From Candidatus Nomurabacteria bacterium (GTDB taxonomy: Bacteria > Patescibacteriota > Minisyncoccia > Phycocordibacterales > UBA9973): DNA of 64,000 nucleotides. The stretch spans positions 1,433 through 65,432 of the forward strand of contig CALRFQ010000002.1 of NCBI GenBank assembly GCA_943356675.1, given 5' to 3'. Below, piece after piece: positions 36,690 through 52,102 of this stretch (position 1 is the first letter of the stretch; the number at the start of each line of letters is the position of its first letter). Made by a program: the position numbers and the translations under genes. The notes beneath the pieces are model-generated. The model did no database searches, was not told the DNA's origin, and saw only the letters and a list, made by a program, of their open reading frames with translations.

Positions 36690-36719
36690 ACTAATCAAAC
36701 TTCGCTCTTCGGAGCGCGT

Positions 36720-36914
36720 CTACTGTAGCTTGTCCGTAGTCTTTTTATCTCTTATATTCTCTTTTTCTGCATGTTCTAGCATTTCTTTCCAATGCTGACC
36801 AACATCAAATCCATATTTGGCTGAAATTTCTTTTTGTTTTAATAGACTCTTTTTAATTCTTTCCATTTTTTCATCTGTGCTCATTTGATTGATTTGTTTT
36901 TTACTTAATTTCAT
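36720..36914 (-). CDS. small hypothetical protein (64 aa)
   Basis: ORF only, lying at the left edge of the AT-rich island. Confidence 0.25.
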   Translation of the reverse strand: MKLSKKQINQMSTDEKMERIKKSLLKQKEISAKYGFDVGQHWKEMLEHAEKENIRDKKTTDKLQ

Positions 36915-37261
36915 ATTTGTATTATTTTTAAAATTTAATAATACTCTTTGGGCTCAAATCTGCTGACTGGGCAAAGAAAAAAGCGACTAAGAGTTTTGAT
37001 CAAGATTCGACAATCTTAATGAAATCTCCCAATCGCCTTTGGCAATCAGTCATGATAAGGTATTTGGATCCTCGCAGATTTCCCAATTCACCTACCCATT
37101 CAAGGGAACCTCACATGGTCTACAGTCTGGCAGACTCAGTGTTACCTTTAAGGGCAACAATTATATTATATAACATATATCATTTACTGACAAGTTTTTT
37201 GTCGCCATATGAGTTTCTCATATTAATGATATACTTATGAAAGTTACCTACATACAAGATT

Positions 37262-39712
37262 ATGGAATTTTCAAAAAGTGATTATCTTTTAAAAATAAAA
37301 GGAATTATAATAAACGATTTAGGAATCAATGCAAATGAATATATTTCATGTTTTTTTGATGAAAATGAACCATATATTGAAATTAAAACTAGTTATGTTA
37401 AATATAAAATTATAATTGATAGGAGTGATTGTGGTTCTAGATATACAACAGAAAATACTAAAATAATAGTTATAGGGTCTAGTTTTTTAGAGCAAGAAGA
37501 TAAGGTTAAGTTTTTCCTAAGAAGGCAGTTTATAGCAGATGAAGAGCTTTTTAACTTATATCTTAAAAGAGGTAAAGAAATTAATCCGCATGAGGCACAA
37601 CATGTTGCCCTTTTAAATTTAGAAAACACTAGAAAAAGTGGGAACAATAAGGCATTAGCAGTACTTGCAACAGGTCTAGGTAAAACGATTTTATCAGCTT
37701 TGGATGTAAAAAATACAAAATCAGATAAAGTATTATTCATTGTTCATATCGATGAAATTTTAAAACAAACAAAGGAATCGTTTGAAATGGTTATGCCAGA
37801 AAGAAAAAATGATATGGGTTTTTTTACTGGAAAACAAAAGGATCGTGATAAAAAAATATTATTTGCCTCGATCCAGACTATTGGTAGGCAGAAACACATT
37901 GAATCATTTTCTCCGAATCATTTTGATTATATAATTATAGATGAAACCCATCACACTGCAGCACCCACATATAAAAAAATTTTTGACTATTTTCACCCTA
38001 ATTTCTTTCTTGGTTTAACAGCAACACCTGATAGAATGGATAAAAAAGATATATTGAATTTCTATGATCATAATGTTGTATTTGAAATGAATCAAGAAGA
38101 TGCAATAGAGCAAGGATATTTAACCCCATTTCAGTATTTGGGATTTAAGGATAATATTAACTATTCAAATATATTTTTTAACGGTTTCAAGTATGATATT
38201 AAGGATTTAAACAAGCATCTACTTATAGATGCACGTGATAATGAAATTATAAAAAAATATAAAGAATCAGCTGGTAATAGAAAAACTATAGGTTTTTGTG
38301 CCTCAATAGAACATGCAGAGAGGTGTGCTAAGAAGTTCAACGAGGCAGGGATAGATGCAATCTCAATTCATTCTAAAAGTGTTGGTCTAGATGGTTTTAA
38401 TGAAAAAGGAGTAAAGACTTTAATAAATCATTTCAGGCAAAATAAATGCCAGATTGTTTTTGTTGTAGATATGTTTAATGAAGGAATTGATATTCCTGAT
38501 GTTTCTTGTTTGTTATTTTTACGACCAACAGAGTCAAAGACAGTTTTTGTTCAACATATGGGTCGTGGTTTAAGAATATCTCCAGGCAAGGAAAATGTTT
38601 TAATTTTAGATTTTATTGGAAACTATCGTACTGCTAATTTAATTATTGAAGGATTGAATTTAAAAAATAATATTAGAGATTTAAAGAAATCAAAAAGGGA
38701 AGGCAAGGATGTATTTGCTTATAGTATTAATAATTGTGAAATAATTTTTGAATCTGAAGTGATAGATATTTTTAAAAATAATGAAGCTGCATATTCAGAA
38801 GAAATAAAAAATGAATTTATCTCAAAAGAGTGGATCGAATATTCTACTTATTTAAATAAATGGACAAAAGATAATTTATATTGGAAAAGGGGACAGCAAA
38901 ATCAATACTTTGAAGTTAACCTTGAGGCTATTAGGGTAATAAAAGATAATCCTAAAATAACAGAAAAAGATTTTATCGAAAAAATACAAGAAATTGTAAA
39001 AGAGAAATACCCCGGCAAAAATATGACTGCTGGATTTCGTGGATTAATGCTTTCAAAAATTAGTGGCTTTATTTCTGCTAATACACCGCTTAAACCAATG
39101 GAACCATTTATGAAAATTTGTGAAAAAACAAAAGATTTTAAAAACATTGAATTATACCGAGATGTTCTTACTTCACAGTTAGAAAAGATATTATATTGGA
39201 ATCCAATTTATGGCTCATATAATAAATACGTTGATTTATCTCATAGGGTGTCTTTTAATGACTTTAAAGTATATCCATTCTTCTTCATCTATGATGTATT
39301 GATTAGTCTTATTGATGACTATGGAGAAACAGAGCCATTTGTTAGTAGATTTGAATTTAATACTTTTATGGCTATCACTAAAGAGCATTCAGAGTCTAAA
39401 GATGTGCTAGAAAGGATCCTTCGTTTTAGGAAAGATGAGGAAATTCATCAAACCAAAAAATTATTAGACAAAAATAACAACATCGACCCGCGTTTTTATG
39501 GGATTGTGCATTATAATAAATATATTGAAAAAACAAAAATAGGTATAAAAATCAAGGACAAATACGTGGACGAGGTAAGAGAAAAAGTAAAAAAATTTAA
39601 AGAGCTTTACAATTCAGGTAAACTTATTTTCTATAAGGAAAATGACCAAGAATTATATGAAAATATGCTATACTCTAATCAAGATTTAATAAATTATTGC
39701 ACAGAGAAATAG
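37262..39712 (+). CDS. SF2 helicase (ResIII/DEAD-like core) with about 110-aa N-terminal and about 340-aa C-terminal domains of unknown function
   Basis: Motif I ATGLGKT, motif II IIDETHH, motif III LGLTATPDR, motif V VVDMFNEGIDIPDV and motif VI QHMGRGLR. The C-terminal extension may be DUF3427-like; I cannot verify that without a search. Confidence 0.75.
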   Translation: MEFSKSDYLLKIKGIIINDLGINANEYISCFFDENEPYIEIKTSYVKYKIIIDRSDCGSRYTTENTKIIVIGSSFLEQEDKVKFFLRRQFIADEELFNLYLKRGKEINPHEAQHVALLNLENTRKSGNNKALAVLATGLGKTILSALDVKNTKSDKVLFIVHIDEILKQTKESFEMVMPERKNDMGFFTGKQKDRDKKILFASIQTIGRQKHIESFSPNHFDYIIIDETHHTAAPTYKKIFDYFHPNFFLGLTATPDRMDKKDILNFYDHNVVFEMNQEDAIEQGYLTPFQYLGFKDNINYSNIFFNGFKYDIKDLNKHLLIDARDNEIIKKYKESAGNRKTIGFCASIEHAERCAKKFNEAGIDAISIHSKSVGLDGFNEKGVKTLINHFRQNKCQIVFVVDMFNEGIDIPDVSCLLFLRPTESKTVFVQHMGRGLRISPGKENVLILDFIGNYRTANLIIEGLNLKNNIRDLKKSKREGKDVFAYSINNCEIIFESEVIDIFKNNEAAYSEEIKNEFISKEWIEYSTYLNKWTKDNLYWKRGQQNQYFEVNLEAIRVIKDNPKITEKDFIEKIQEIVKEKYPGKNMTAGFRGLMLSKISGFISANTPLKPMEPFMKICEKTKDFKNIELYRDVLTSQLEKILYWNPIYGSYNKYVDLSHRVSFNDFKVYPFFFIYDVLISLIDDYGETEPFVSRFEFNTFMAITKEHSESKDVLERILRFRKDEEIHQTKKLLDKNNNIDPRFYGIVHYNKYIEKTKIGIKIKDKYVDEVREKVKKFKELYNSGKLIFYKENDQELYENMLYSNQDLINYCTEK

Positions 39713-39740
39713 ATAATTTATATATCTTAAATTTATTTTC

Positions 39741-41330
39741 ATGAAAAAAATCATTAAAAACATATCAGCTGAATCGCATCCTTCTCATTATATGATGCAT
39801 AAATATTGGGGACGAAAGCCACACAATGTTGTGAGTGATTATATTTTAAATTACACAAAACCAGGGGATGTGGTCCTTGACCCATTTATGGGTAGTGGTG
39901 TTGTTGTGATTGAATCCCTAAAGCATAATCGTAAAGCAATCGGGATAGACCTAAACCCGATGGCTTGTTTTATTACGGAAAACACAATCAATAAAGTTGA
40001 TCTTGAAGACTTTGAAAAAACTTTTTTTCAGATCTACGAGCATAATTACAAAAAATTTATCGATTTATATGATACGAAATGTCCAAAGTGTGAACATCAT
40101 GTACCATTTGAAAACTCAATCTGGGACCTCGACGAATTTGTAAAAGTTAGAGCAATTTGTCCTATACACGGTAAATTTATAAAAAAAACAGATTCATACG
40201 ATCAAAAAGTTTTAAAAAAATCCTTAGAAACTTTCCATAAACTCGACAAAGAAAATAAAATATTCTATCCAAAAGATGAGATTCTAAAATTCGTAAAAAG
40301 AAATGGTAAGAGTAGGCTCGATGAGTTTTTTTCAGAGAGAGCGCTTTCTGTGCTTGGCTCAATAATAAAAGATATAGATACTGTTGAAAATCCTGAGACA
40401 AAGAGTCTTCTTCTTTTATGTTTTACTTCTATGTTGCCAAACGTATCAAAAATGATTCCTGGCAATACTGAGTCTGTGAACGGTAAATCAGGATGGGTAA
40501 TAAGCAAACTATGGGCTCCAAAAGTGCACACTGAAAAGAATGTTTTTAATAGTTTCAAACACAGATTTACAAAAGTTAAAAAAGGAAAACAAGAATTAGT
40601 TGGAGTTTTTGAGTCAAAGAACGCTAAAATATTAAATATTGACGCAACAAATCTTAGCGCAGTTAAATCTGAATCAGTAGATTATATTTTTACTGACCCT
40701 CCTTATGGAGACAGTATTGCTTATTTTGGACTCAGTATGTTTTGGAATGGATGGCTTAAAAACAAAGTCAATTATGAAAGCGAGATTATATATGACCCAT
40801 ATCGTAATAAAAAATACGAGGATTATTCTTCACGAATGAAAAAAGTATACTCCGAATTATTCAGGGTTTTGAAGGATGAAAAATATCTTTCTTTCACTTT
40901 CCATAATAGAAACTTAAATATCTGGAAAGCAGTAATGGATGCTGTTACTGGTGGTGGGTTTCATCTTGTGAATTTGGTCTATCAAGAGCAGGCTGTTGCG
41001 TCAGGGACACAAGGCTTAAACCGAAATAACACCCTGCGTGGAGACTTTGTATACAACTTCACTAAGAATACAAAAATAAAAACTATCGATAAGATATATG
41101 ACCATATGGATAGTAAAAAAGAGATCGTAAAAAAAGTTCAGTTGTGGATACAAAAAAATGATGGTTTTATAACCTCGGATTCTTTATACGAGAAACTTAT
41201 TCCATTTATTGTTGAAAAAAATTTGTACAGCGACGAAGATGGACAGGTCATGAACATTGAAGGCTTACTCAAGCAGAGTTTTAATTATAAGCAACTCCAC
41301 ACAGAAGAATATGGCTGGCAAGAAAAATAA
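39741..41330 (+). CDS. DNA amino-methyltransferase (N6-adenine or N4-cytosine) with internal Cys4 zinc-ribbon
   Basis: N-terminal HPSHYMMHKYWGRKP (motif X-like) and DPFMGSGVV (motif I, FxGxG). TDPPYGD (motif IV) lies about 270 aa downstream. CPKCEHH...CPIHG sits in the intervening target-recognition region. Confidence 0.75.
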   Translation: MKKIIKNISAESHPSHYMMHKYWGRKPHNVVSDYILNYTKPGDVVLDPFMGSGVVVIESLKHNRKAIGIDLNPMACFITENTINKVDLEDFEKTFFQIYEHNYKKFIDLYDTKCPKCEHHVPFENSIWDLDEFVKVRAICPIHGKFIKKTDSYDQKVLKKSLETFHKLDKENKIFYPKDEILKFVKRNGKSRLDEFFSERALSVLGSIIKDIDTVENPETKSLLLLCFTSMLPNVSKMIPGNTESVNGKSGWVISKLWAPKVHTEKNVFNSFKHRFTKVKKGKQELVGVFESKNAKILNIDATNLSAVKSESVDYIFTDPPYGDSIAYFGLSMFWNGWLKNKVNYESEIIYDPYRNKKYEDYSSRMKKVYSELFRVLKDEKYLSFTFHNRNLNIWKAVMDAVTGGGFHLVNLVYQEQAVASGTQGLNRNNTLRGDFVYNFTKNTKIKTIDKIYDHMDSKKEIVKKVQLWIQKNDGFITSDSLYEKLIPFIVEKNLYSDEDGQVMNIEGLLKQSFNYKQLHTEEYGWQEK

Positions 41331-42435
41331 ACTAAAAATTATAGACCTATTCGCGGGGGTGGGAGGCATCTCATCTGGCTTTAAAAAGGCTGGTTTTAAT
41401 GTTGTGTCAGCGAACGAGTATAAATTTGAGATTGCGAACACTTATATTAAAAATCATCCAGGTACAAAGATGATTGTCGAGGATATAACGAAAGTGAAGT
41501 CAAAGGATTTGCTTAACGGAGAGCATAATATTGATGTGATTGTTGGTGGTCCACCATGCCAAGGGTTCAGTATGGCTGGTAGGCGTATACGAGGAGGAGG
41601 GGGTGCATTCCTAAAGGACCCTCGCAATGAACTCTTTAAAGAATTTATACGGATAGTAAAGGAGATTAAGCCAAAGGTATTTGTAATGGAAAATGTAGCA
41701 GCAATGCTTAATATACACGGTGGTGCTGTTCGAAATGAGATAATCAAGAAATTTAAGGAAATAGGATATGAGACAAAAGTTCATGTTCTTCTTGCAGCAG
41801 AATACGGAGTACCTCAGATGAGAAAGCGTGCCGTATTCATTGGAAACAGAATAGGAGTAGACCCTGAAGAATTCTTCCCAGAAAAAACTCACGGTCCCAA
41901 GAATGCAAAACCATATGTAACCGTGGCCGAAACCATTCTTGACTTACCGAAAGTGCTATCAGGAGAAGGAGAGTTTGAATCAGAATACGGTCCGGTTAAA
42001 GCACTTTCTGAGTATCAACAGGAAAGACGTGGAAAGAGCGAAAAATTATACAACCATCAAGCTACTCACCACGATCCACGCATTGTCGAATTACTCAAAA
42101 ATATCAAGGAAGGAGAGGGTAGAACAAGCTTACCGAAGGAGCTACAGACGAAATCGGTGCATAGTGGCGCGTTTGGTAGAATGAATAGAAACAAGCCCGC
42201 ATATACGATCACAACGCGTTTTGACACCCCTTCCGTTGGTCGTGTAACTCATCCATCACAGCACCGGGCTTTAACTCCACGAGAGGCTGCGCGAATCCAG
42301 TCCTTCGATGATGATTTTGTATTTTATGGTAGCAAGAGTTCCGTTGGGATACAGATAGGAAATTCTGTACCTCCATTATTAGCCTATGCGATTGCTCAAA
42401 AAATTTTAAAAGTTTTAAATAAAAATCATGATTAA
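41314..42435 (+). CDS. DNA (cytosine-5)-methyltransferase
   Basis: Motif I IDLFAGVGG, motif IV GGPPCQGFS, motif VI ENV, and C-terminal QIGNSVPP. The start at MAGKKNKLKIIDLFAG overlaps the upstream gene's end (coupled). Confidence 0.85.
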   Translation, partial: AGKKNKLKIIDLFAGVGGISSGFKKAGFNVVSANEYKFEIANTYIKNHPGTKMIVEDITKVKSKDLLNGEHNIDVIVGGPPCQGFSMAGRRIRGGGGAFLKDPRNELFKEFIRIVKEIKPKVFVMENVAAMLNIHGGAVRNEIIKKFKEIGYETKVHVLLAAEYGVPQMRKRAVFIGNRIGVDPEEFFPEKTHGPKNAKPYVTVAETILDLPKVLSGEGEFESEYGPVKALSEYQQERRGKSEKLYNHQATHHDPRIVELLKNIKEGEGRTSLPKELQTKSVHSGAFGRMNRNKPAYTITTRFDTPSVGRVTHPSQHRALTPREAARIQSFDDDFVFYGSKSSVGIQIGNSVPPLLAYAIAQKILKVLNKNHD

Positions 42436-43780
42436 TGACTATAAAAAATATTTAGAAGGGAAAGGCACTAAAAACTTTTGGAAAAAAGCAAAGCAAAAGG
42501 AATACACTAGAGATGTTGTAAATAAGATTTACAAGGAATTGACGTCTGGTTTTAGTAAATTAACAACTCGTAGCAGCATTACTTTACGATACTTAGGTTT
42601 AATAATTAATCTAGGCGGAGACAAGCTTCAAATCTCAAATGCGGGAGATACTTTTCTAAAATCATTATACAAACAAAAAATTCTTGACGAGCAGGTCATG
42701 AAAGTTTATCTAGATTGCCCTGAATTAAATGAAAATCTTTCAATAAAGATTGCGCCAATGGAGGTTCTTTTGAAGATTCTTTATTCGGTAGACTATGTTT
42801 CATTTGAGGAGTATCAATTATTTGTATGTTGGACGAATGATAAGAGCGAAATATCTCTTGTTATTGATTTAATTGAGGAATATAGAAATAGTGATTCAAA
42901 AGAGTCTTATTTAGAAATTTTAAAAGATAAAAGTCAAGAATTAAGTATCGTAGACTTCGCCGATGCTGTAAAAAGATTTTTTAATACACTGATTATTTCT
43001 TCATATATTCAAAAAGAAAGTGACAAGATCATCCCAAAACTTTCAAAGAAAGATATTGAATTAATATTAGAAAGTTTTTCTTTGAGAGATTTTAGCGAGG
43101 AGGGATACTTTGATTATTTAAATACGAATGATGGATGGCAAATTTACACAAGTAATCCTAATTATTTAAGAGTTATAGAGAGTTTAGAGCAAAAAACAAC
43201 GGAAGAACAAGAAGAAATTGTAAATAAAATAACTGGAGGATTAAGTTTTCCAGATCTTTCTAAAGTTAAACCACAGATATTAGAAATGCAGATTGATGAA
43301 AGCATTGAACCAACAATAAAAACAAAAAGGGTAAAAAGTGGTACAGCAAAAAAAATCGATTTTGAATTAAGAGATAGTAATAATCGGGCAGCAGGTGATT
43401 TTGCAGAGAAGATAGTTATCAAACATGAAATCGAAGAATTAAAAGAAACAAACCCTGAGCTTATTAATCGTATTAAACAAGTGTCCTTAGAAGATGATAC
43501 ATTAGGATACGATATCTTATCTTTAACGTCAGATTCATATGAAAAACACATTGAAGTGAAAGCTGTAAGATATAGACCAGCAATAAAATTTAGATTTTTT
43601 ATTTCCGAAAATGAAGTATCGATTGCAAAAGAAGATCCTAATTATTATCTATATATTGTTTTTGATTATTTGTCGGAATCACCTTTTATTTATATGATGC
43701 CTAATCCTTTCATGAATAAAATTCCTGGAGTACAGATCGACCCAATAAAATATCTTGTGACAGTAAAAATTAAAAAATAA
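42428..43780 (+). CDS. hypothetical protein with C-terminal DUF3883-like (PD-(D/E)xK-type) nuclease domain
   Basis: The C-terminal 130 aa carry AAGDFAEKIVIKHE...GYDILSL...IEVKAV...FFISENEVSIAKEDPNYYLYIV, matching my recollection of the DUF3883 core (GYDI...IEVK). The N-terminal 300 aa are unassigned. Its start overlaps the upstream gene's stop. Confidence 0.5.
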   Translation: MINDYKKYLEGKGTKNFWKKAKQKEYTRDVVNKIYKELTSGFSKLTTRSSITLRYLGLIINLGGDKLQISNAGDTFLKSLYKQKILDEQVMKVYLDCPELNENLSIKIAPMEVLLKILYSVDYVSFEEYQLFVCWTNDKSEISLVIDLIEEYRNSDSKESYLEILKDKSQELSIVDFADAVKRFFNTLIISSYIQKESDKIIPKLSKKDIELILESFSLRDFSEEGYFDYLNTNDGWQIYTSNPNYLRVIESLEQKTTEEQEEIVNKITGGLSFPDLSKVKPQILEMQIDESIEPTIKTKRVKSGTAKKIDFELRDSNNRAAGDFAEKIVIKHEIEELKETNPELINRIKQVSLEDDTLGYDILSLTSDSYEKHIEVKAVRYRPAIKFRFFISENEVSIAKEDPNYYLYIVFDYLSESPFIYMMPNPFMNKIPGVQIDPIKYLVTVKIKK

Positions 43781-43785
43781 ATTTT

Positions 43786-44640
43786 ATGGAAAATATAAGT
43801 AAAAAAATAACATTATTTTTAAATGATGGATTACCAAAAGGTATTCGTGAAGTATCTATTGATCAATGGAGTGGTGGGGCAATTTGTGGACCAAGAAATA
43901 AAATTGAGGAAATTTTAAAATTTGAACAGTTGAATGGTCCTTGCGTTTATTTTTTAATTGGTGAATCTGATGAAAGTGACTTATTGAATGTATATGTGGG
44001 TGAAGCTGACTCATTTAGTCAAAGAGTTAAAGATCATTTAAGAAAAAAAGATTGGTGGCAGAACGTGGTGGTCTTTTTTGGTTATAATAATAACCCAAGT
44101 AAGACTGGTATTGAATATCTCGAGTCTTTTATCTACTCAGATTTAATAAATGCAGCTAGGTGTATTTTGGAGAATGGAAATAAGCCCGCTCTGCCCAATA
44201 TATCTAAACATGACATACCTGGACTGCATATATTTTATGAAAATATTAAATTAATTATGCCAGTTATGGGTTTTGATATTTTTGCAGTAGATATAAAAGA
44301 AGATAAAATAAATGAAAGCCAACATATTTTTTGTGAAGGTAAAGGTTCAAAATCTGAAGCTATTCTTTTGGATGATGGGAAGGTTCTTGTTTTAAAAGGT
44401 TCAACTGCAATAAAAGAAAATGCTCCAAGTTTTGAAAAACATAATTATAAAAAAATCAAAGATAATTTATTAAAAATTGATAGACTTGTTGAGGTTGGTG
44501 ATTATCTATCTTTTTCAGAAGATTATCTTTTTGATAGTTTAAGCGCCGCCGCTGCGGTAATATTAGCAAGGTCTGCACAAGGGCCAAAAGAGTGGAAATT
44601 TAAGACTGGTAAGTCTGTTAAAGATTTTATCGAGAATTAA
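43786..44640 (+). CDS. GIY-YIG-like nuclease domain protein with DUF4357-like C-terminal domain
   Basis: N-terminal CVYFLIGESD...LNVYVGEADSFSQRVKDHL resembles a GIY-YIG core. The C-terminal VLVLKGS...SAAAAVILARSAQGPKEWK resembles DUF4357. Confidence 0.5.
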   Translation: MENISKKITLFLNDGLPKGIREVSIDQWSGGAICGPRNKIEEILKFEQLNGPCVYFLIGESDESDLLNVYVGEADSFSQRVKDHLRKKDWWQNVVVFFGYNNNPSKTGIEYLESFIYSDLINAARCILENGNKPALPNISKHDIPGLHIFYENIKLIMPVMGFDIFAVDIKEDKINESQHIFCEGKGSKSEAILLDDGKVLVLKGSTAIKENAPSFEKHNYKKIKDNLLKIDRLVEVGDYLSFSEDYLFDSLSAAAAVILARSAQGPKEWKFKTGKSVKDFIEN

Positions 44641-46221
44641 ATGAAACTTCTAACCAAAACAGATTTTATACTATATCGTGAATGTCCGAATAATGTTTGG
44701 GTTAAAATTCATATGCCCGAGGAGTATTCTAAATTCCCAGTATCAGATTTTGAAAAGTCTTTAGGGGTAATGGGTAACGAGGTTGAAGAGCTTGCTCGGG
44801 GTATGTTCCCAGGTGGAGTCATGGTAGCGGGTCGCGGAGACGAGGCTCGTGAATATACAAAGAAGTTGATTGCCGAGAAAGCTCCTGTGATTTTCCAAGC
44901 TGTGTGTGCTACGGATAAATACTTGGCTGCGGGTGATGTCTTGGTCTGGAATACTGATGCCTGCATGTATGACTTGTATGAAATAAAAATGTCTTCAACT
45001 AAGGAAGAGAATGACGATGAAGAAGAGGAAGGCAAACCAAAAAAGGTAAATAAGAAAAAGGAATTGCAATACGAATACGATATTGCTTTCCAAACCAATG
45101 TATTTTCTATGTGTGGTGTACCATTGAATAATAAATATCTTGTCCGACTAAATAAAGAATATATTAAAATAGGTAATTTGGATTTTTCAGAAAATAAACT
45201 TTTTATCATAGAAGACAAAACTGAGTCAATAAATGAGATGATAGAAAATGTAAAATTTGAAATGGGTCAAGCTTTTGAGTATCTTTCTCACGATGCAATT
45301 CCAAGTGGTCATTGTCCTTGCTATTACAAAGGGCGTAGCTCTCATTGCACAACTTTTACTTTTACGAACCCTGATGTGCCAGCATATAGCGTGCATGATT
45401 TGAATAGAATTGGTAATAGTAAAGCTTATTTGAAAGAACTTCTTGATGCAAATATTTTAACAATAGATAATGTAATTGAGTCTGAAATACCAAAACCTTC
45501 AAAAACAAAAGACGGAAGACCTGGTAAACCAAGAAAGTTGAACCAAGTAGTAATTCACAAGTCTAAAGAGCCCATTATTGATCTTGATGCGATAAAAGCT
45601 GAATTAAATTCTTTAACATTTCCGCTTTATTTCCTGGATTACGAGACGTATCCAACGGCTATACCAGTTTTTGATGGATATCATCCTTATCAGCACATCG
45701 TATTTCAATATTCTATTCATGTACTCAAAGATAAGGATGCCGAATTAGAACATTATGAAATGCTTGTTTTAGAAGGGGATCCAGCGGAGAAAATTGTCGC
45801 CGGTTTGAGGGAAGTCATAGGTGACACAGGTAGTGTAATATCTTGGTACAAAGCATTTGAAAATGCGAGAAATAGAGAACTGTCCCGTTTGGTTCCACTT
45901 CAATTTGAATTCTTGCAAAGTGTGATAAGTAGAACTTATGATCTGATGGATATTGTAGAACAACAGTATTATGTCCATCACGGTTTTAAGGGTAGCTCGT
46001 CGATCAAAAAGGTGCAACCTATTTTAGCCCCAGAATTTTCATACAAGGATTTGGATGTTCAGAGTGGAACTGATGCAATAGAATCGTATCGGCAAATAGC
46101 ACAAGGGGAATTGGATGGTAAAGATTTGGAGGAAAAGAAAAGGCAAATGCTGAAATACTGTGGTTATGATACTGAGATAATGTATATCTTGTGGAAATTT
46201 TTTACAGACTTAGTTAAATAA
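44641..46221 (+). CDS. DUF2779-like protein (Cas4/RecB-like N-terminal nuclease fold with Cys cluster, plus RNase-H-like C-terminal region)
   Basis: FILYRECPNNVW start, Cys cluster HCPCYYKGRSSHC, and central LYFLDYETYPTAIPVFDGYHPYQHIVFQYSIH block. Its start follows the upstream stop with no gap. Confidence 0.55.
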   Translation: MKLLTKTDFILYRECPNNVWVKIHMPEEYSKFPVSDFEKSLGVMGNEVEELARGMFPGGVMVAGRGDEAREYTKKLIAEKAPVIFQAVCATDKYLAAGDVLVWNTDACMYDLYEIKMSSTKEENDDEEEEGKPKKVNKKKELQYEYDIAFQTNVFSMCGVPLNNKYLVRLNKEYIKIGNLDFSENKLFIIEDKTESINEMIENVKFEMGQAFEYLSHDAIPSGHCPCYYKGRSSHCTTFTFTNPDVPAYSVHDLNRIGNSKAYLKELLDANILTIDNVIESEIPKPSKTKDGRPGKPRKLNQVVIHKSKEPIIDLDAIKAELNSLTFPLYFLDYETYPTAIPVFDGYHPYQHIVFQYSIHVLKDKDAELEHYEMLVLEGDPAEKIVAGLREVIGDTGSVISWYKAFENARNRELSRLVPLQFEFLQSVISRTYDLMDIVEQQYYVHHGFKGSSSIKKVQPILAPEFSYKDLDVQSGTDAIESYRQIAQGELDGKDLEEKKRQMLKYCGYDTEIMYILWKFFTDLVK

Positions 46222-46265: not shown

Positions 46266-46395
46266 ATTTAATAGTTTATATTAAGAGTGGTGGTAGAGAA
46301 TTGGCTCAATGACCCCACAGCAACCTGCATTTGTAAGGTGCTAAATCCAACCAGACGCGAAAGCGTCAGGAAAGATAAGTCTTGCGTCTAGTCCA
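46266..46395 (+). promoter_or_regulatory. second SAM-I-like riboswitch copy (core near-identical to the metK leader) with its own TGCTATAAT promoter at about 46243-46251
   Basis: AGAGTGGTGGTAGAGAATTGGCTCAATGACCCCACAGCAACC...GGTGCTAAATCCAACC differs from the metK copy by 1 nt over 42 nt. It is followed by a GACGC-GAAA-GCGTC hairpin. I could not unambiguously pair the P1 3' strand. Confidence 0.45.
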
Positions 46396-46437: not shown

Positions 46438-46701
46438 ATGGAAATAATTAAAAAGGAGATAAAGTTGTGCGTAGTTTGTAATAATTTTAGGGGATTGGTT
46501 GAAGAGAGGTATAATGGAGAGGTTCCAGTACATTGTGCTTGTGATCTAGAGAAAGAAAGGATGAATTATGGTAAATGGCGTAGTCCTTGCATGATAAGTC
46601 CTAATGGGGATAAGCTTTGGTGGACGCCTATTTCAGATCATAAAAAGGCCGATGGTAGATGGTATCATGTCGCATACTTCGCCAGACCCGCATTAAATTA
46701 A
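46438..46701 (+). CDS. small Cys-rich hypothetical protein (87 aa) downstream of riboswitch copy 2
   Basis: Start taken at MEIIKKEIK, preceded by GAGGAA 8 nt upstream; the ORF track gives 46399. Contains CVVC...HCAC and WW motifs. No family recognised. Confidence 0.35.
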   Translation: MEIIKKEIKLCVVCNNFRGLVEERYNGEVPVHCACDLEKERMNYGKWRSPCMISPNGDKLWWTPISDHKKADGRWYHVAYFARPALN

Positions 46702-47156
46702 TATCGAATATAAATATTGATTTAGATAAATTACGTAAAAAAATTGAAGAGGAAGAAAAAAATACTAAAAGTAATATAGAAATTTTTAGGGATAATGTTC
46801 ACAAAAAGGAGATTAAAGAAATTTCAGAGAATAAGGAGGTATTTGAAAATGAATTTATAAAGGAGCTTGAGATTGAAATATATTCAAAAGAGCCAACAAG
46901 AAAAGATAAATTTATTTTAAAATTTGCTGAATTAATTAAAAAACTAGGATTATTTAATTTTCTAATTGAATTTGCGTACCTTCACGAAAAAATTGTAAGC
47001 GAAATTCAACATAAATTAAATTTGTCTAAAACTGATTTAAAGGAAAATTTTAAAATTAGGACTATAATATTGCTATGTTTTCAGTTTGTAGTAGCATTAG
47101 TTCTAGTTTTATTAACTAAAATCATTAAAATTATTTTAATTCATTTATTTAAATAA
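46659..47156 (+). CDS. hypothetical protein (165 aa), Lys/Glu-rich with C-terminal TM helix
   Basis: ORF overlapping the previous one by 43 nt. Confidence 0.35.
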   Translation: MVSCRILRQTRIKLISNINIDLDKLRKKIEEEEKNTKSNIEIFRDNVHKKEIKEISENKEVFENEFIKELEIEIYSKEPTRKDKFILKFAELIKKLGLFNFLIEFAYLHEKIVSEIQHKLNLSKTDLKENFKIRTIILLCFQFVVALVLVLLTKIIKIILIHLFK

Positions 47157-47188: not shown

Positions 47189-47406
47189 AAGTTGATGACA
47201 AATCTCATGATAGGGAAGACAGGATAGAACGCGATGGTATAGTAGAAGGGATTTTGAAAGACGCTGGGATGCCACTTTTACGATTTGAAAACCATGGATC
47301 ATTTAGCAAAGATGAAATAGAAAAAACATTCTGGTATTCTGCAGAATACCAGAATGTTTTTTATTTATCTATCTATCTATTACTATTCTCTAATTCGCTC
47401 GAATAG
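47189..47406 (+). pseudogene. remnant 3' fragment of a DUF2726-family gene (copy 1)
   Basis: In-frame translation VDDKSHDREDRIERDGIVEGILKDAGMPLLRFENHGSFSKDEIEK matches the conserved DUF2726 C-terminus (SHD...ERD...AGIPLLRF). There is no start codon or N-terminal portion. Confidence 0.4.
47325..47358. repeat. perfect 34-bp palindrome element B (aacattctggtattctgcagaataccagaatgtt), copy 1 of 3, flanked by an A6 and a T6 run
   Basis: Its reverse complement is identical. The A-tract/T-tract flanks make it terminator-like. Other copies at 49114 and 49940. Confidence 0.8.
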
Positions 47407-47416
47407 GCGAATAGTT
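47383..47416. repeat. repeat element C, copy 2
   Basis: Identical to 28818-28851. Confidence 0.8.
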
Positions 47417-47474
47417 CCCGAATATTTTCCAAATAGCCCCACGCCACCAACCCTCACCAAGCACAATACCAAAA

Positions 47475-47512
47475 ATAACATTCTCACATTCTCAAGAATG
47501 TGAGAATGTTAT
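47475..47512. repeat. palindromic repeat element A, copy 2
   Basis: aaaaataacattctcacattctcaagaatgtgagaatgttatttt. Confidence 0.8.
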
Positions 47513-47915
47513 TTTGTTGTAATATTTTCTCAACGTACCCGTCTTTTAATATGTAAGTACTTTGTTATTTTTTATAGGAAATGGCAGAAAAATATCCTCG
47601 GACAAGGATGTAATGCATACCCACATAGCGAAAGGGCTGTAAGGGTAGTTAGGAGGCCTTATTACAAAGGTATTGTTCAAAAGCGGGTGTAGATAAACTG
47701 AACCACCCCCTATTTATTAAACATATATAAAATAAACTGCAGTGCGTTTTGTATATGAAATAGGTCAGACAAGTAGCGTATGTTGGTCGCTAGTCTCTCA
47801 AATATCAAGTGGGCTTGATCTTTGTGCAAAAATAAAAGCTGAAGCAACACCTCTTTTGCGAGTAAAACCTATTCTCGTTTTCCTATAAAAGGTAATAAAA
47901 TGTTATAATATTATT

Positions 47916-48914
47916 ATGAAGAAGAAGGTAATTAAAACTAAAGACAAAAATCAAGGCATGGTTATATATCAGGCTAAATCCGGAGCAATCGAACTTCGCG
48001 GGGATTTTAAGCATGAGACAGTATGGGCAACACAGGATCAAATTGCTGAACTTTTCATGACTACAAAGCAAAACATTAGTCAGCACTTGAAAAGTATTTT
48101 TGAAACAAAAGAATTAAATCAGAATTCAGTTGTAAAGGATTTCTTTACAACTGCTAAAGATGGTAAGCAATATAAGGTTAAATTTTATAATTTAGATGTT
48201 CTACTTTCTGTCGGGTATAGAGTTAATTCCAGAAATGCAACCCAGTTTCGTATTTGGGCCACAAAGACACTGAAAGAGCATTTAGTGAAAGGCTACACTA
48301 TAAACAAGAAAGTCATACTTAAAAATTATGATTCTTTTATTGAGACAGTAAATAGCATTCAGGCACTCCTTCCAGAGCACGTAGTCCTTGATCCGAAAGC
48401 AATTCTTGATTTGGTGAAGGAATATTCGGTCACATGGGCTAAGCTTGATGCTTATGATAAAGACCAATTGTTTACCAAAGGCCAAACAAAGAAAAAAGTA
48501 AAACTTGCCGGACAAGAACTATTGGACGCTATTTCAGAATTGAAAAATGAATTAATGAAGAAAGACGAAGCTACAGATATGTTTGCAATGGAGAGGTTTG
48601 CTGGTGGCGTGGAAGGTATAGTGGGTAACGTGATGCAAGCATTTGGCGGGCAAGATGTGTATCTTACTGTCGAAGAAAAGGCAGCTCACTTACTATATTT
48701 TATGGTAAAGAATCATCCGTTCACAGATGGTAATAAACGTTCGGGTGCTTTTGCGTTTATTTGGTTCCTGCGGAAAGTGGGTGTGCTTGGTGCTAAAAAC
48801 ATAAATCCTTCAGGCCTAACAGCTATCACACTCCTTATTGCTGAAAGCGATCCAAAGCATAAAGACAAAATGGTTGCCCTAGTTGTTGAGCTTTTGCAAG
48901 TAAATAAAAAATAA
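47916..48914 (+). CDS. RhuM-family N-terminal domain fused to Fic/Doc domain (putative AMPylating/phosphorylating toxin-like protein)
   Basis: The N-terminal YNLDVLLSVGYRVNSRNATQFRIWATK is RhuM-like. The C-terminal HPFTDGNKRSG matches the Fic motif HPFx(D/E)GN(G/K)R. TGTTATAAT lies 6 nt before the ATG. Confidence 0.75.
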   Translation: MKKKVIKTKDKNQGMVIYQAKSGAIELRGDFKHETVWATQDQIAELFMTTKQNISQHLKSIFETKELNQNSVVKDFFTTAKDGKQYKVKFYNLDVLLSVGYRVNSRNATQFRIWATKTLKEHLVKGYTINKKVILKNYDSFIETVNSIQALLPEHVVLDPKAILDLVKEYSVTWAKLDAYDKDQLFTKGQTKKKVKLAGQELLDAISELKNELMKKDEATDMFAMERFAGGVEGIVGNVMQAFGGQDVYLTVEEKAAHLLYFMVKNHPFTDGNKRSGAFAFIWFLRKVGVLGAKNINPSGLTAITLLIAESDPKHKDKMVALVVELLQVNKK

Positions 48915-48950
48915 ACTTAATTAAGATAATGTTTAGTAAGGACCGTAGTT

Positions 48951-49195
48951 GCTAAACAGAACGCGATGGTATAGTAGAAGGGATTTTTTAAAGACGCTGG
49001 GATGCCACTTTTACGATTTGAAAACCATGGATCATTTAGCAAAGACGAAATCCAAAAAATAATTTTATCAAAATTATCCTAAACATCTCCCACCACCACC
49101 TCTCCTCAAAATAAACATTCTGGTATTCTGCAGAATACCAGAATGTTTTTTATTTATCTATCCATACATTACTATTCTCTAATTCGCTCGAATAG
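48951..49195 (+). pseudogene. remnant 3' fragment of a DUF2726-family gene (copy 2, internally deleted and frameshifted)
   Basis: About 90% identical to 47213-47330 at the DNA level (...ERDGIVEGI...), but with a 1-nt insertion and a missing upstream segment. Confidence 0.35.
49114..49147. repeat. palindrome element B, copy 2
   Basis: Exact copy. Confidence 0.8.
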
Positions 49196-49205
49196 GCGAA
49201 TAGTT
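49172..49205. repeat. repeat element C, copy 3
   Basis: Exact copy. Confidence 0.8.
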
Positions 49206-49591: not shown

Positions 49592-49626
49592 ATAACATTC
49601 TCACATTCTTGAGAATGTGAGAATGT
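49592..49626. repeat. palindromic repeat element A, copy 3 (variant centre)
   Basis: ataacattctcacattcttgagaatgtgagaatgt. Confidence 0.75.
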
Positions 49627-49653
49627 CGTTTTGGACTATTTTGTTTCTAAGCA

Positions 49654-49884
49654 CTATGCCTTTTTGATAAATTCAGTGCGGAGGACAATGCCTTTCATAC
49701 CGTCGATATTGCACTCCACTAGCTCTTCATCATCTGTCAGGCGGATATTCTTGGCCTTGGTGCCTTTCTTGATCACTATTGAGCTACCTTTTATTTTTAA
49801 ATCTTTTATAAGGGTGATACTGTCGCCATGGGCTAGTATCGTGCCGTTCGCATCGCGAACTATTACTTCATCTTCTGTTTCCAT
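49654..49884 (-). CDS. PhnA/YjdC-like C-terminal-domain protein (76 aa)
   Basis: DANGTILAHGDSITLIKDLKIKGSSIVIKKGTKAKNIRLTDDEELVECNIDGMKGIVLRTEFIKK aligns with PhnA-protein C-terminal domains. The ORF-track start 49944 lies inside palindrome B, so the internal Met at 49884 is preferred. Confidence 0.5.
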   Translation of the reverse strand: METEDEVIVRDANGTILAHGDSITLIKDLKIKGSSIVIKKGTKAKNIRLTDDEELVECNIDGMKGIVLRTEFIKKA

Positions 49885-49939
49885 ATAACTCAAAGTATAC
49901 ACAATTTTAAAATTTCTGCACCTATCAATTTTATTTAAT

Positions 49940-49973
49940 AACATTCTGGTATTCTGCAGAATACCAGAATGTT
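49940..49973. repeat. palindrome element B, copy 3, in a divergent promoter region
   Basis: Exact copy between the minus-strand PhnA-like gene and the plus-strand EVE gene. Confidence 0.8.
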
Positions 49974-50006
49974 ATTTTGCATTATTTCATATGATATAAT
50001 AACTCT

Positions 50007-50492
50007 ATGAACTACTGGCTAATAAAATCCGAGGCGTCGTGCTACGGCATCGACGATTTGAAGAAAGATAAGAAGACGAGTTGGGAAGGCGTGAGGAACT
50101 ACCAAGCGCGGAATTTCATGACGCAGGGGATGAAGGTGGGGGACAAGATACTTTTCTATCATTCAATAGGGTCAGACAAAACACCTGCGGGTGTGTACGG
50201 CGTCGCGCGCGTGGCGAGGGGAGCCCATGCCGACGAAACTCAGTTTGATAGGAAAGACGAACATTACGATCCCAAGGCTATTAAGCCCAAAGCTAGCAAT
50301 ACTGGCAAAGTCATATGGCAATGCGTAGACGTGGCATTTGTATCGAAGTGGAAGCATCCCGTCACCCTCGCAGAAATCCGCCTCGACCCCGCCCTCTCCG
50401 GCATGCCCCTCCTCGCCCCCGGCCAGCGCCTCTCCATAATGCCCGTGTCCGAAAAGCATTTCAATCATATTCTTAATTTATCCCAATCCTAA
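50007..50492 (+). CDS. EVE (PUA-like, DUF55) domain protein
   Basis: YWLIKSEA...W.GVRNYQARNFM...GDKILFYHS...GVYGVARV pattern. TGATATAAT lies 6 nt before the ATG. The 3' half is strikingly GC-rich. Confidence 0.75.
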   Translation: MNYWLIKSEASCYGIDDLKKDKKTSWEGVRNYQARNFMTQGMKVGDKILFYHSIGSDKTPAGVYGVARVARGAHADETQFDRKDEHYDPKAIKPKASNTGKVIWQCVDVAFVSKWKHPVTLAEIRLDPALSGMPLLAPGQRLSIMPVSEKHFNHILNLSQS

Positions 50493-50516
50493 TTTCCTTC
50501 CTCTCGCATCCCGTAT

Positions 50517-50550
50517 CTATTCTCTAATTCGCTCGAATAGGCGAATAGTT
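50517..50550. repeat. repeat element C, copy 4
   Basis: Exact copy. Confidence 0.8.
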
Positions 50551-50672
50551 GTGCACTATATTATATTTGCGAAATATCATTTTTATGGTATAAGTAATAT
50601 GAATAGTGTGTTTAGCATTATTTATTATAATAACCTACATAATAAAGTAGGAAAATAAAAAAATTTTAAACT

Positions 50673-50975
50673 ATGAGTTCTTTAAACAGAAACCAGAGAA
50701 GCTTGTCCAGAGCGAAAGCTTTTCTAAAACCGTTCCTTTCATCGAAAAAGGATCGTAAAGTAATTACAGCAGTCTACAAGGCTTGCTCAAAAATTTACAA
50801 TCTTGAATTATCTAATTCAGGATTCAGTAAAAAATTTTGTGACTTAGGTATTAGTCAACAGCAATTAAATCAAATCATTGATGACATTCAGTTTAGTACT
50901 GGCAAAATTTACAACTATAAACAACGCGATCTTCGTGAAAATGCGTTCGACCTTATGGTAATGGTAATGCTTTAA
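50673..50975 (+). CDS. hypothetical protein (100 aa)
   Basis: ORF only. Confidence 0.3.
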   Translation: MSSLNRNQRSLSRAKAFLKPFLSSKKDRKVITAVYKACSKIYNLELSNSGFSKKFCDLGISQQQLNQIIDDIQFSTGKIYNYKQRDLRENAFDLMVMVML

Positions 50976-51032
50976 AACAAAAATTAATGGGACCCGCACT
51001 TTGTGTGGGCCTTTTAATTTGCATGTTAGTTC

Positions 51033-51066
51033 ATATTCTCTAATTCGCACGAATAGGCGAATAGTT
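51033..51066. repeat. repeat element C, copy 5 (2 mismatches)
   Basis: catattctctaattcgcacgaataggcgaatagtt. Confidence 0.7.
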
Positions 51067-51130
51067 GCGTTGCGTTAGGGTTGTATCGGCATACTATATA
51101 CATAGAAATATTTTATGATATAATTTATTT

Positions 51131-51412
51131 ATGAAAATCGGAGAATATGAAAAAGTATTCAAAGCACTAGCAAACAAGAGGAGACTTGAGATAATTAAAT
51201 TTTTATCTGAAAAGTCTGAAGCCACAGTCGGCGAAATAGCAAAAAAGATTAAGCTTTCGATCAAAGCAACATCCAAACATTTGATAATACTCGCGAACGC
51301 TGAGGTATTAGAAAAGGACCAAAGGAATCTACTCGTGTTTTATCAGAAATCAAAAGCAATGCCCAAGAAATTACAATCTCTTATTAATCTATTCTCTAAT
51401 TCGCTCGAATAG
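51131..51412 (+). CDS. ArsR/SmtB-family HTH transcriptional regulator
   Basis: KALANKRRLEIIKFLSEKSEATVGEIAKKIKLSIKATSKHL winged-helix region. The last 7 codons and the stop codon are supplied by repeat element C. Confidence 0.7.
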   Translation: MKIGEYEKVFKALANKRRLEIIKFLSEKSEATVGEIAKKIKLSIKATSKHLIILANAEVLEKDQRNLLVFYQKSKAMPKKLQSLINLFSNSLE

Positions 51413-51422
51413 GCGAATAGTT
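51389..51422. repeat. repeat element C, copy 6 (overlaps the ArsR stop)
   Basis: Exact copy. Confidence 0.8.
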
Positions 51423-51435
51423 TAATTCATAATCT

Positions 51436-51816
51436 ATGATTATTAAAATAATTGAAAATTATATTTTGGGGTTTGCACTAGGAGTTATGCTTGAATGCGC
51501 GTATCGATCCATCAATGCGCGGAGGTTTGTACTGCCGGATTTTTTTAGCACTCAAATATATGCATTTAGTACTATGTTCTTGTATTTGTTAAGTTTTCTT
51601 TATTTACCCATAGCTTATTTGGTAATTGTAATTGCTGTAATTACTTCAGGTCTAGAATTTATAATTGGATATGCGTATTTAAAATTTAAGAATGTGATGC
51701 TCTGGGATTATTCGAAAGAGTTTATGAATTTCAAGGGATTGATTTGTTTGAAGTTTTCTATTCTCTGGGTAATACTTTCACTAATCTATTATTATCTAAT
51801 CATTCCATTTATTTAA
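51436..51816 (+). CDS. hypothetical membrane protein (126 aa)
   Basis: ORF with 3-4 TM helices, downstream of arsR-like gene. Confidence 0.35.
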   Translation: MIIKIIENYILGFALGVMLECAYRSINARRFVLPDFFSTQIYAFSTMFLYLLSFLYLPIAYLVIVIAVITSGLEFIIGYAYLKFKNVMLWDYSKEFMNFKGLICLKFSILWVILSLIYYYLIIPFI

Positions 51817-52098
51817 ATGTTTAAGAAAAAATTTATAATTAACGCAAAAGTTTGGCGGTGGCCGGGGGATGGAGGCTGGCATTTCGTGACGTTCGAGAAG
51901 AAGCTATCAGAGAGCATAAGAAAGGTATATACGAAAGGCTTTGTGAAGATTGAAGCGAAGGTGGGTAAGAGCACTTGGAAGACTTCGCTTTTCCCGCATA
52001 AGGAATCTGGCTATTTGCTTTGTATAAGTAAGAAGATTCGCAAAGCTGAAGACATAGTGGAAGGTGACGAAATTAAAATCTCAATTGTGATACAATAA
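51817..52098 (+). CDS. DUF1905-domain protein
   Basis: WRWPGDGGWHFVTF...GKSTWKTSLFPHKESGYLLCI...GDEIKISI matches the DUF1905 pattern. Confidence 0.55.
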   Translation: MFKKKFIINAKVWRWPGDGGWHFVTFEKKLSESIRKVYTKGFVKIEAKVGKSTWKTSLFPHKESGYLLCISKKIRKAEDIVEGDEIKISIVIQ

Positions 52099-52102
52099 AT
52101 TT

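Follow-up and report, generated by a model that had tools for sequence, protein, structure and literature searches.

What separates msrA from msrB in a 64-kb stretch of a Candidatus Nomurabacteria bacterium chromosome, and did this 15.4-kb block arrive as one piece? The initial annotation of the stretch (contig CALRFQ010000002.1) had read the block as a single accessory island inserted between the two genes. Based on comparisons with relatives combined with domain, composition and repeat analyses, we propose instead, with a probability of about 0.72, that the interval is not a single island but a plasticity zone of composite make-up in a Patescibacteria (Paceibacteria/Nomurabacteria-like) chromosome, and that its left part, termed slot 1 here, is a slot for defence cargo. 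All coordinates are those of the 64-kb window, i.e. the whole stretch analysed, and L-numbers denote the fetched loci of relatives. The two msr genes had been placed correctly, with msrA ending at 36689 and msrB beginning at 52103 (Pfam PMSR and SelR). The features that frame the argument are:

36201..36689, plus strand: msrA, the left anchor (Pfam PMSR, 3.2e-54)
36693..44634, no strand: slot 1, predicted exchangeable defence cargo, 7,942 bp, 31.6% G+C content (GC); edges from L003 (left) and L184-L187 (right)
44641..46221, plus strand: DUF2779 gene, the right anchor of slot 1 (Pfam, 1.4e-35)
52103..52474, plus strand: msrB (Pfam SelR, 1.2e-41), with a copy of the palindromic repeat palB across its stop codon (52473-52506)

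The edges of slot 1 rest on the ends of nucleotide homology in single relatives. On the left, L003 represents the closest species (msrA 90% identical at the amino acid level); between metK and TspO and over msrA its gene order follows that of the window, with ~82-92% nucleotide identity, and its homology ends at 36692, 3 nt past the msrA stop codon. On the right, homology to L184-L187, whose DUF2779 proteins are 89-92% identical to that of the window, resumes at 44635, 6 nt before the DUF2779 start codon, and nucleotide homology to five relatives begins at 44635-44654 on this side. Judged from its homologues, DUF2779 itself is very well conserved among Patescibacteria: 1,076 of them reach E <= 1e-50, and the top 120 are 61-92% identical over 98-100% of the query. 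Since homology breaks at the msrA stop and at the DUF2779 start, and since relatives carry differing cargo there, 36693-44634 is predicted to be an exchangeable defence slot. The left boundary of the previously proposed island is hence exact (36692), whereas only 36693-44634 of the 15.4 kb appears exchangeable, with DUF2779 as the right boundary.

The cargo differs from genome to genome. Six distinct sets of defence or restriction-modification (R-M) genes, identified through PADLOC or Pfam matches, occupy the position 3' of msrA or 5' of DUF2779 in related genomes, four of them directly upstream of DUF2779 and two others downstream of msrA. In L003, msrA is followed by SoFic (6.5e-117), a type I methyltransferase (3e-262) with its specificity subunit and a Ymh-type gene, and in L004 by an Nhi/AbiO-like helicase fused to an S24 peptidase, a PDC-M36A-like protein and a Zeta toxin; after this cargo, L004 continues with an EVE gene flanked by palindromes, then msrB, DUF1905 and SWIB. 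Upstream of DUF2779, the JAPLXP01 metagenome-assembled genome (MAG; L075 and L177) carries RadC, an SNF2 helicase, a MutH-like nuclease, a C5 methyltransferase and an EcoR124_C protein. At the same position, L188 has an N6_N4 methylase, a REase_II-like protein, a type IIG R-M protein (2.7e-270) and NucS/PDC-S18, and L184 has type II methyltransferases (9.8e-95) along with one open reading frame (ORF) without assignment. The idea of repeated acquisition at a hotspot, already voiced in the initial annotation, is carried by these six sets in six relatives.

In the window, slot 1 at present holds a four-gene cassette of R-M type together with a DUF4357 gene:

36720..36914, minus strand: 64-aa ORF at the left edge of the cargo (gene call in L001 and L002; no Pfam match and no homologue in the fetched loci)
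37262..39712, plus strand: cassette gene 1, SF2 helicase (816 aa) with a SauUSI-like motor (Pfam ResIII 8.1e-40, Helicase_C); first 100 aa and last ~330 aa unassigned
39741..41330, plus strand: cassette gene 2, N6/N4 DNA methyltransferase (Pfam N6_N4_Mtase 2.1e-27; PADLOC MTase_II 9.6e-56)
41311..42435, plus strand: cassette gene 3, C5 cytosine DNA methyltransferase (Pfam DNA_methylase 6.8e-78; NCBIfam dcm 235.7 bits, cut-off 100.65)
42428..43780, plus strand: cassette gene 4, putative nuclease (N-terminal half RE_AlwI 1.4e-9, 37.9 bits, cut-off 23.1; C-terminal Pfam NOV_C (DUF3883) 2e-15)
43786..44640, plus strand: DUF4357 protein (Pfam DUF4357 1.4e-13; weak GIY-YIG 0.042; PADLOC candidate defence family PDC-S14 3.4e-79)

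These four genes are linked in five unrelated contexts, at 57-86% protein identity for the individual genes and 71-77% nucleotide identity over the stretches that align as DNA. The contexts are two distinct viral contigs, L172/L173/L182 and L183 (L182 and L183 from IMG/VR), the closed 943-kb genome CP064996.1 (L174) of the candidate phyla radiation (CPR), and L175/L176. Nucleotide identity to L172/L173 is 77% over 6.36 kb. Homology to the L172/L173 and L175/L176 copies stops at 43780/43781, i.e. at the final base of the stop codon of the NOV_C gene or one base later, and homology to the phage copies is limited to the four genes (37480-43781). The DUF4357 gene has no homologue in any fetched locus, and other cassette copies have DUF3644 in its place. 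In the viral contigs the cassette sits between lysin and integrase. The cassette is low in GC in every context (32% against 45% in the flanks in CP064996.1), and the C5 methylase is the GC-richest of its genes in every copy. Its higher GC is thus intrinsic to the cassette wherever it is found, and neither this nor the 'mosaic' composition inside the cassette is evidence of separate acquisitions. Among GenBank phages, there was a partial match to the NOV_C domain in Vibrio phages only, and no cassette. We consider that the cassette, the main cargo of slot 1, is a mobile unit, predicted from its conserved linkage to move as a whole and common to chromosomes and viral contigs. It may be carried as a moron between lysin and integrase of uncultivated temperate phages, and it sits at unrelated sites in other CPR genomes.

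The cassette encodes methyltransferases beside a nuclease, as R-M systems do, and matched no named multi-gene system in PADLOC; at the equivalog level, NCBIfam named none of the helicase, the NOV_C protein, the DUF4357 protein and DUF2779. Type IIS systems are expected to have two methylases for their asymmetric site. Two methylases of differing chemistry combined with an AlwI-type domain would then be compatible with an asymmetric, type IIS-like site whose strands are protected separately, and the helicase may act as the ATP-driven partner. From the domain content we infer such a type IIS-like R-M system with an ATP-dependent helicase partner, its restriction activity and site specificity being putative. 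The likeness to the AlwI family consists of the nuclease's N-terminal region, which scores above the Pfam cut-off, and the two methylases alongside; in contrast to AlwI, however, the C-terminal domain is NOV_C/DUF3883 and not the AlwI cleavage domain. Similarly, the helicase motor resembles that of the type IV enzyme SauUSI, with residues 100-489 aligning to residues 214-597 of PDB 7clg (1.5e-78), and the PADLOC match to mREase_IV (1.2e-81) is confined to this helicase part. Residues 1-106 and 471-816 have no Pfam domain, and neither the N-terminal PLD nuclease nor the C-terminal DUF3427 of SauUSI was found, which sets the protein apart from SauUSI. Helicase homologues 64-71% identical exist in other contexts. 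Unlike AlwI and SauUSI, the genes described here form a fixed four-gene unit.

Ahead of the cassette helicase there is a non-coding motif of 54 nt, GCGACTAAGAGTTTTGATC-hairpin-AATGAAATCTCCCAATCGC (36983-37036, plus strand). A copy with 89% identity occurs at 3723-3776 of L181, in front of an unrelated PLD-SNF2 helicase and a type IIG R-M gene, and its central hairpin differs between the two with compensatory changes. The motif has no Rfam match and was absent in a scan of viral contigs.

How could such cargo be exchanged? The genes listed by the initial annotation are all present, as are a second S-adenosylmethionine (SAM) riboswitch and the reported AT-richness, with 33.4% GC in the msrA-msrB interval against 39.4% in the rest of the window. 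The windowed GC and k-mer comparisons that it had called for locate the strongest deviation at 37-41 kb (tetranucleotide z 4.8-7.7); the signature remains clearly atypical at 42-48 kb and deviates mildly at 49-53 kb. Its statement that no integrase or transposase is visible is borne out as well. No recombinase domain was found by Pfam in the annotated ORFs from 27 to 63 kb, including the interval, and tblastn of three recombinases against the window yielded no match (best E 0.27). The search of the flanks for att-like repeats returned none, with no common word of at least 14 nt between 36600-37300 and 43700-52650, and the sole tRNA of the window lies at 15383, so none is at the junctions. Phage structural, lysis or replication genes or fragments are missing from the interval according to Pfam, and tblastx of the ORF-less stretches against all loci detected no phage remnant. 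Of the hallmarks of an integrase-mediated island, only the atypical composition is therefore seen, in slot 1 in particular. Because no recombinase, att repeat or tRNA is present at the junctions, and mobility genes are absent from the 64 kb, homologous recombination in the conserved flanking genes is most likely the route of exchange; cargo would be replaced after DNA uptake or delivery by phages.

The premise of an insertion between msrA and msrB depends on the order of these genes in relatives. We collected 160 loci, 80 of them located through msrA in species genomes and the other 80 through msrB in JGI metagenomes; 71 hold both genes. All hits of the msrA-based scan of species genomes were MAGs labelled Paceibacteria, Nomurabacteria or 'Saccharibacteria'; the msrB metagenome scan returned distant relatives only (<=78% identity), used for gene order and uninformative for the right boundary. 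In 66 of the 71 loci the two genes lie within 1 kb of each other, in agreement with the earlier remark that they neighbour each other in many bacteria; the case that the initial annotation had named as refuting its reading, namely that no relative has them as neighbours, thus does not apply. However, msrB is directly followed by msrA in 61 of these 71, the reverse of the order in the window. The order msrA before msrB occurs only in L007 (18 nt apart), L016 and L133/L134 (~0.6-0.7 kb apart) and L004 (7.3 kb apart), as well as in L075, in which msrB is fragmentary. These minority loci share the flanks of the window, with TspO upstream and YgjP, DUF1905, SWIB and zf_Tbcl downstream. Only inside the minority clade with the window's order is it accordingly meaningful to speak of an 'insertion between msrA and msrB'. 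In L075, which belongs to the JAPLXP01 MAG, msrB consists of two pieces (10518-10692) matching 52106-52193 and 52364-52443 of the window, and this copy next to msrA is apparently an internally deleted pseudogene.

The right half of the interval (44641-52102) is of a different nature from slot 1: judged from gene content in relatives, it is made up of lineage-resident genes in permuted order, plus one Fic/RhuM unit. Many relatives have PhnA, EVE, DUF1905, ArsR-type, TspO, SOUL, glyoxalase and several unnamed small genes next to their msr genes, with the order permuted. From 49654 to 52102 we would see lineage-resident single-gene units, with ArsR, a CmpB-like gene and DUF1905 closely packed ahead of msrB. 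The small genes and the neighbouring repeats are:

49257-49526, minus strand: DUF397 gene (Pfam)
49594-49627, minus-strand segment: palB (repeat search)
49654-49944, minus strand: PhnA/YjdM gene (Pfam; NCBIfam phnA 89.7 bits, cut-off 80.2; true start probably 49884)
49940..50548, plus strand: unit of palA, promoter, EVE and the repeat repC, with EVE at 50007-50492 (Pfam EVE 6.6e-48)
50673..52102, plus strand: right end, comprising a 100-aa ORF, repC, ArsR, a CmpB-like gene and DUF1905 (Pfam)
51131-51412, plus strand: ArsR gene (Pfam), its stop codon inside repC
51817-52098, plus strand: DUF1905 gene (Pfam)

PhnA has orthologues 71-87% identical in L177, L185, L186 and L013, and the EVE unit including its upstream palindrome is conserved in L004 (15714-16284, 73% nucleotide identity). 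EVE is not GC-rich in its 3' half only, as had been stated; GC is 51.9% in each half. ArsR-type genes lie upstream of msrB in L115, L117 and L184, and DUF1905 lies near msr genes in 10 loci. In the window, the CmpB-like gene abuts DUF1905, which in turn is 4 nt from msrB. A leader of the form T(A/G)TGATA(T/C)AAT-N7-ATGAA, resembling an extended -10 element, precedes EVE (49990-50011), ArsR (51114-51135) and msrB (52086-52107).

Between DUF2779 and PhnA, content differs among relatives, with msrB, an ArsR-like gene, Tag or msrA in this position in others, which marks 46222-49653 as a second, non-defence variable slot. In the window, this slot 2 combines a conserved small-protein operon controlled by a SAM riboswitch with a Fic/RhuM unit that may be lost through recombination between repeats. 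Its left part contains:

46275..46381, plus strand: SAM-I riboswitch aptamer (Rfam RF00162, 59.5 bits against a gathering score of 44.4; model positions 1-108, full-length)
46409-46427, plus strand: terminator hairpin with T run after the riboswitch (terminator search)
46438..47156, plus strand: riboswitch-controlled pair, o46438 (87 aa, CxxC...CxC) and o46659 (165 aa, hydrophobic C-terminus), no Pfam match

The other SAM-I riboswitch of the window (28903-29008, Rfam) precedes metK, and the copy in the interval is a paralogue of this leader, with a nearly identical aptamer core, differing P3/P4 stems and a similar terminator. An Rfam E-value search of 36.5-52.7 kb returned this riboswitch only, besides spurious matches of microRNA models to palindromes. 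The likeness to metK SAM-I (S-box) leaders thus extends over the full-length aptamer and the downstream terminator; in contrast to them, the element here controls a conserved 87-aa Cys-rich protein, and the pairing recurs in other Patescibacteria. The o46438 family comprises 12 protein clusters at 60-82% identity with Cys11, 14, 33 and 35 invariant, and the same riboswitch precedes its members in L177/L178 and L181, the unit being conserved in three other assemblies; in L179 (26-1478) the homologue follows metK. L177 has DUF2779, a 164-aa ORF, a tRNA, the riboswitch, o46438, an o46659-like ORF and, further on, PhnA on the minus strand, an order like that of the window, with the riboswitch unit at 3080-3946. 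Family members of 87-99 aa, with four invariant cysteines, have no Pfam or PDB relative (the L181 copy is at 1451-2142). From its sequence and setting, o46438 would belong to the SAM regulon of Patescibacteria as a member not described so far.

A SAM riboswitch followed by metK also lies 0.1-2.6 kb past the cassette in the phage lineage of L172 (19192-20327) and L173 (13578-14713) and in CP064996.1 (L174, 16707-17968); in L172/L173/L182, the phage apparently brings along a riboswitch-regulated SAM synthetase of its own beside the two SAM-dependent methylases. This raised the idea that the second riboswitch of the window is a relic of a cassette-linked metK. We rejected it as the main explanation because riboswitch and o46438 form a conserved unit in L177, L178 and L181.

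The remainder of slot 2 is bracketed by direct repeats:

47226..47416, plus strand: left direct repeat, with DUF2726 C-terminal fragment (47191-47325), palA (47325-47358) and repC (47384-47414)
47417..49205, plus strand: 1,789-bp Fic/RhuM unit, with palB (47477-47510), a 400-nt ORF-less leader, the Fic/RhuM gene (47916-48914) and the right repeat (48958-49205)

The Fic/RhuM gene matches Pfam RhuM and Fic as well as PADLOC PDC-S23 (2e-108). The direct repeats 47226-47416 and 48958-49205 are ~95% identical with indels, each consisting of the DUF2726 fragment, palA and repC. Two pseudogene remnants had been reported in the interval and are indeed there, but they are two copies of one fragment, the DUF2726 C-terminus (Pfam 1.2e-5). 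In L084/L090 (GCA_947475745.1), otherwise 99.96% identical to the window, exactly 47417-49205 is lacking and 47416 is joined to 49206. The single repeat left there has the flank of the left copy and the internal variants of the right one, which places the crossover within palA and the adjacent spacer. Homologous recombination between the direct repeats of ~190-250 nt would be expected to leave just this product, with the Fic/RhuM unit lost. Fic/RhuM homologues of 39-56% identity lie directly beside msrA or msrB in L008, L011, L027, L108 and L114, loci that are otherwise non-syntenic.

The short palindromes that punctuate this region belong to three types. The 13 copies reported for the interval are in fact the window total (3 palA, 4 palB and 6 repC); only ten lie inside 36690-52102, one spans the msrB stop, and two flank metK (28819 and 30002). 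Ten of the 13 fall in 5.2 kb (binomial P ~3e-9). All are perfect palindromes bordered by runs of A and T, a build also seen in the unique bidirectional terminators at other places in the window. Related palindromes are found at orthologous gene ends in L003, L004, L016, L075, L093, L096, L117 and L188, with only ~13 copies in 2.05 Mb of relatives' loci, and a scan of viral contigs for the palindrome consensus gave no match. Some of the related copies are hybrids, such as one after metK in L003 (1253-1286; left arm of palA, right arm of palB) and the reverse after EVE in L004 (16297-16330), which points to exchange between the repeat types close to the middle of the palindromes, by recombination or gene conversion. 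The palA copy at 49940-49973 lies in a divergent promoter region. We infer a terminator function for these repeats, which we regard as terminator-like elements that also supply recombination homology; as three AT-rich families they would both separate the units of the zone and provide short stretches of homology. In two places repC also contributes coding sequence: the copy at 51390-51420 supplies the last codons and the TAG stop (51410-51412) of ArsR, and the copy at 47384-47414 likewise ends the ORF through the DUF2726 fragment (stop 47404-47406), both with the ending LFSNSLE*.

Several points weigh against the proposed composite zone and its exchangeable slot. Conserved flanks and differing, mostly defence cargo are found, yet an empty slot, with msrA abutting DUF2779, was seen in none of the fetched loci; L186 has DUF2779, msrB and msrA within 3.5 kb, in another order. 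L184-L188 document the DUF2779 side only. The right flank is DUF2779 in the window, L177, L184-L187 and L188; on the left, msrA is the neighbour of the cargo in just two cases, the window and L003, with a looser arrangement in L004 and L075. Both flanks are seen together only in the window and in the join of L075 to L177. Comparators are all MAGs or metagenome contigs, and this join, an exact 141-nt end overlap, rests on an overlap of k-mer length. The strain-level 'deletion' of the Fic/RhuM unit may stem from the assembler having skipped across 57 identical nt. Exchange may also have involved a trans-acting recombinase or a prophage that has since decayed. Finally, in L090 (1-1495, corresponding to 38218-39712; GCA_947475745.1) the helicase is called as a truncated product and a separate 68-aa ORF; since there are no indels relative to the window, a premature stop is implied, and the cassette may be decaying in this strain.

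Against this background, a single 15.4-kb island inserted in one event into an adjacent msrA-msrB pair is very improbable and already largely refuted. The adjacency of the pair in L007, its closeness in L016 and L133/L134, the downstream genes shared with the window and the GC of the whole interval, which is below that of the window, would fit such an event. Nevertheless, DUF2779, the riboswitch with o46438, PhnA, EVE, ArsR-type genes and DUF1905 have orthologues in relatives outside any such island, homology resumes in mid-interval at 44635, the gap from DUF1905 to msrB is a mere 4 nt, and in L004 msrA and msrB are already 7.3 kb apart with EVE shared and the cargo different. It is also unlikely that slot 1 is a decayed temperate phage which integrated beside msrA, lost its structural, lysis and integrase genes and kept a defence moron. 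The position of the cassette between lysin and integrase in L172/L173/L182 and L183 speaks for this origin, as do Paceibacteria prophages with a C5 methylase on record (PMC12455944). However, 36.7-52.1 kb yielded neither phage genes for structure, lysis or integration, whole or fragmentary, nor an att-like repeat; homology to the phage copies does not reach beyond the four genes, and relatives carry non-phage cargo at the same site.

More exotic is the proposal that palA, palB and repC are the recombination sites of a system encoded elsewhere, which would turn 47-52.5 kb into an integron-like array of mobile single-gene cassettes. The clustering of the copies, placed between nearly every gene pair, the Fic/RhuM crossover in palA and adjacent spacer, the hybrids in L003 and L004, the palA copy at 49940-49973 with no obvious terminator role, and the better conservation of the repeats across species than of the neighbouring proteins are all compatible with it. 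We nonetheless judge it quite unlikely: ordinary homologous recombination over 57-96 nt, or an artefact of assembly, accounts for the crossover equally well, the perfect palindromes with A/T runs resemble the unique bidirectional terminators of the window, and copies are scarce in relatives' loci. An integron or repetitive extragenic palindromic (REP) reading was likewise tried and dropped, as the defining features are lacking. Like integron cassette arrays and REP elements, short palindromic repeats here lie between single-gene units, many of them toxin-like or without known function; in contrast, the window has no IntI or RAYT gene, the perfect palindromes have neither attC core sites nor extrahelical bases, the ends AAAAAAC...GTTTTTT and AAATAAC...GTTATTT do not fit RYYYAAC/GTTRRRY (by inspection), and the genes have promoter-like sequences of their own in mixed orientation, two of them being on the opposite strand. 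That the repeats are crossover sites of an integrase-independent or trans-encoded shuffling of promoter-gene-terminator units around Patescibacteria chromosomes is a long shot; if true, it would explain the permuted recurrence of about a dozen small genes (msrA, msrB, TspO, EVE, PhnA, DUF1905, Fic/RhuM and others), the palA/palB hybrids in sister species and the presence or absence of Fic/RhuM between strains. Barely credible, lastly, is that there is no island at all, the interval being an assembly chimera or ancestral DNA with normal CPR compositional heterogeneity. Composition is patchy elsewhere, at 19-22 kb (z 2.1-3.3) and in msrA, SOUL and glyoxalase (51-53% GC). Against this, other species carry different genes at the same junctions, and independent same-species assemblies reproduce these junctions, making a chimera unlikely: L001 and L002 cross msrA into the cargo and L090 runs from the helicase gene to SWIB, so that three other assemblies agree at 99.9-100% identity. 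The scaffold from which the window derives, an ENA metagenome contig of 68.7 kb, is identical to it over the compared stretches of 20 kb.

CPR bacteria (Patescibacteria) largely lack CRISPR and have tiny genomes, and to our knowledge the acquisition and exchange of defence genes in them is known mostly from bulk island predictions. The composite zone described here offers a concrete, testable example, with a defined slot, a differing defence set per genome and no mobility gene in 64 kb. Defence hotspots flanked by core genes are established in Pseudomonas aeruginosa (cDHS; PMC10250203), and 68% of the occupied cases of hotspot #37 in Escherichia coli have no detectable mobile genetic element (PMC10121019). 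As in these, conserved flanks bracket a slot with a differing defence system per genome, often without mobility genes. In contrast to these, the genome is that of a very small Patescibacterium, the anchors are msrA and DUF2779, the slot of ~8 kb has room for effectively one system, only six comparator genomes are at hand with no empty site seen, and a second, non-defence variable slot and dense palindromic repeats adjoin. Genomic islands encoding R-M have been described for Patescibacteria, together with the Paceibacteria prophages mentioned above (PMC12455944); here we add a specific recurrent locus and a specific four-gene cassette common to chromosomes and viral contigs. The locus is an integrase-less defence hotspot, which extends the known hotspot concept to a new, little-studied lineage and does not overturn current ideas. 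Its cargo is demonstrably common to temperate CPR phages, metagenomes of Patescibacteria can be mined for defence cargo with DUF2779 as the anchor, and the cassette of helicase, two methylases and AlwI-NOV_C protein is a candidate for experimental characterisation.

Variability is not confined to the interval. msrA is itself a compositional outlier, with 53% GC and 73% GC at third codon positions (GC3), and the glyoxalase and SOUL genes adjoin it on its upstream side; for the three genes GC is 51-53% and GC3 58-73%, in a genome of ~39% GC. As 34551-36206, holding a 172-aa ORF, glyoxalase and SOUL, is missing in the closest species L003, where TspO abuts msrA, a further variable slot is indicated upstream of msrA. 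A second atypical stretch lies at 18800-21300, with 30-33% GC and the ORFs 18803-19633 and 19539-21230.

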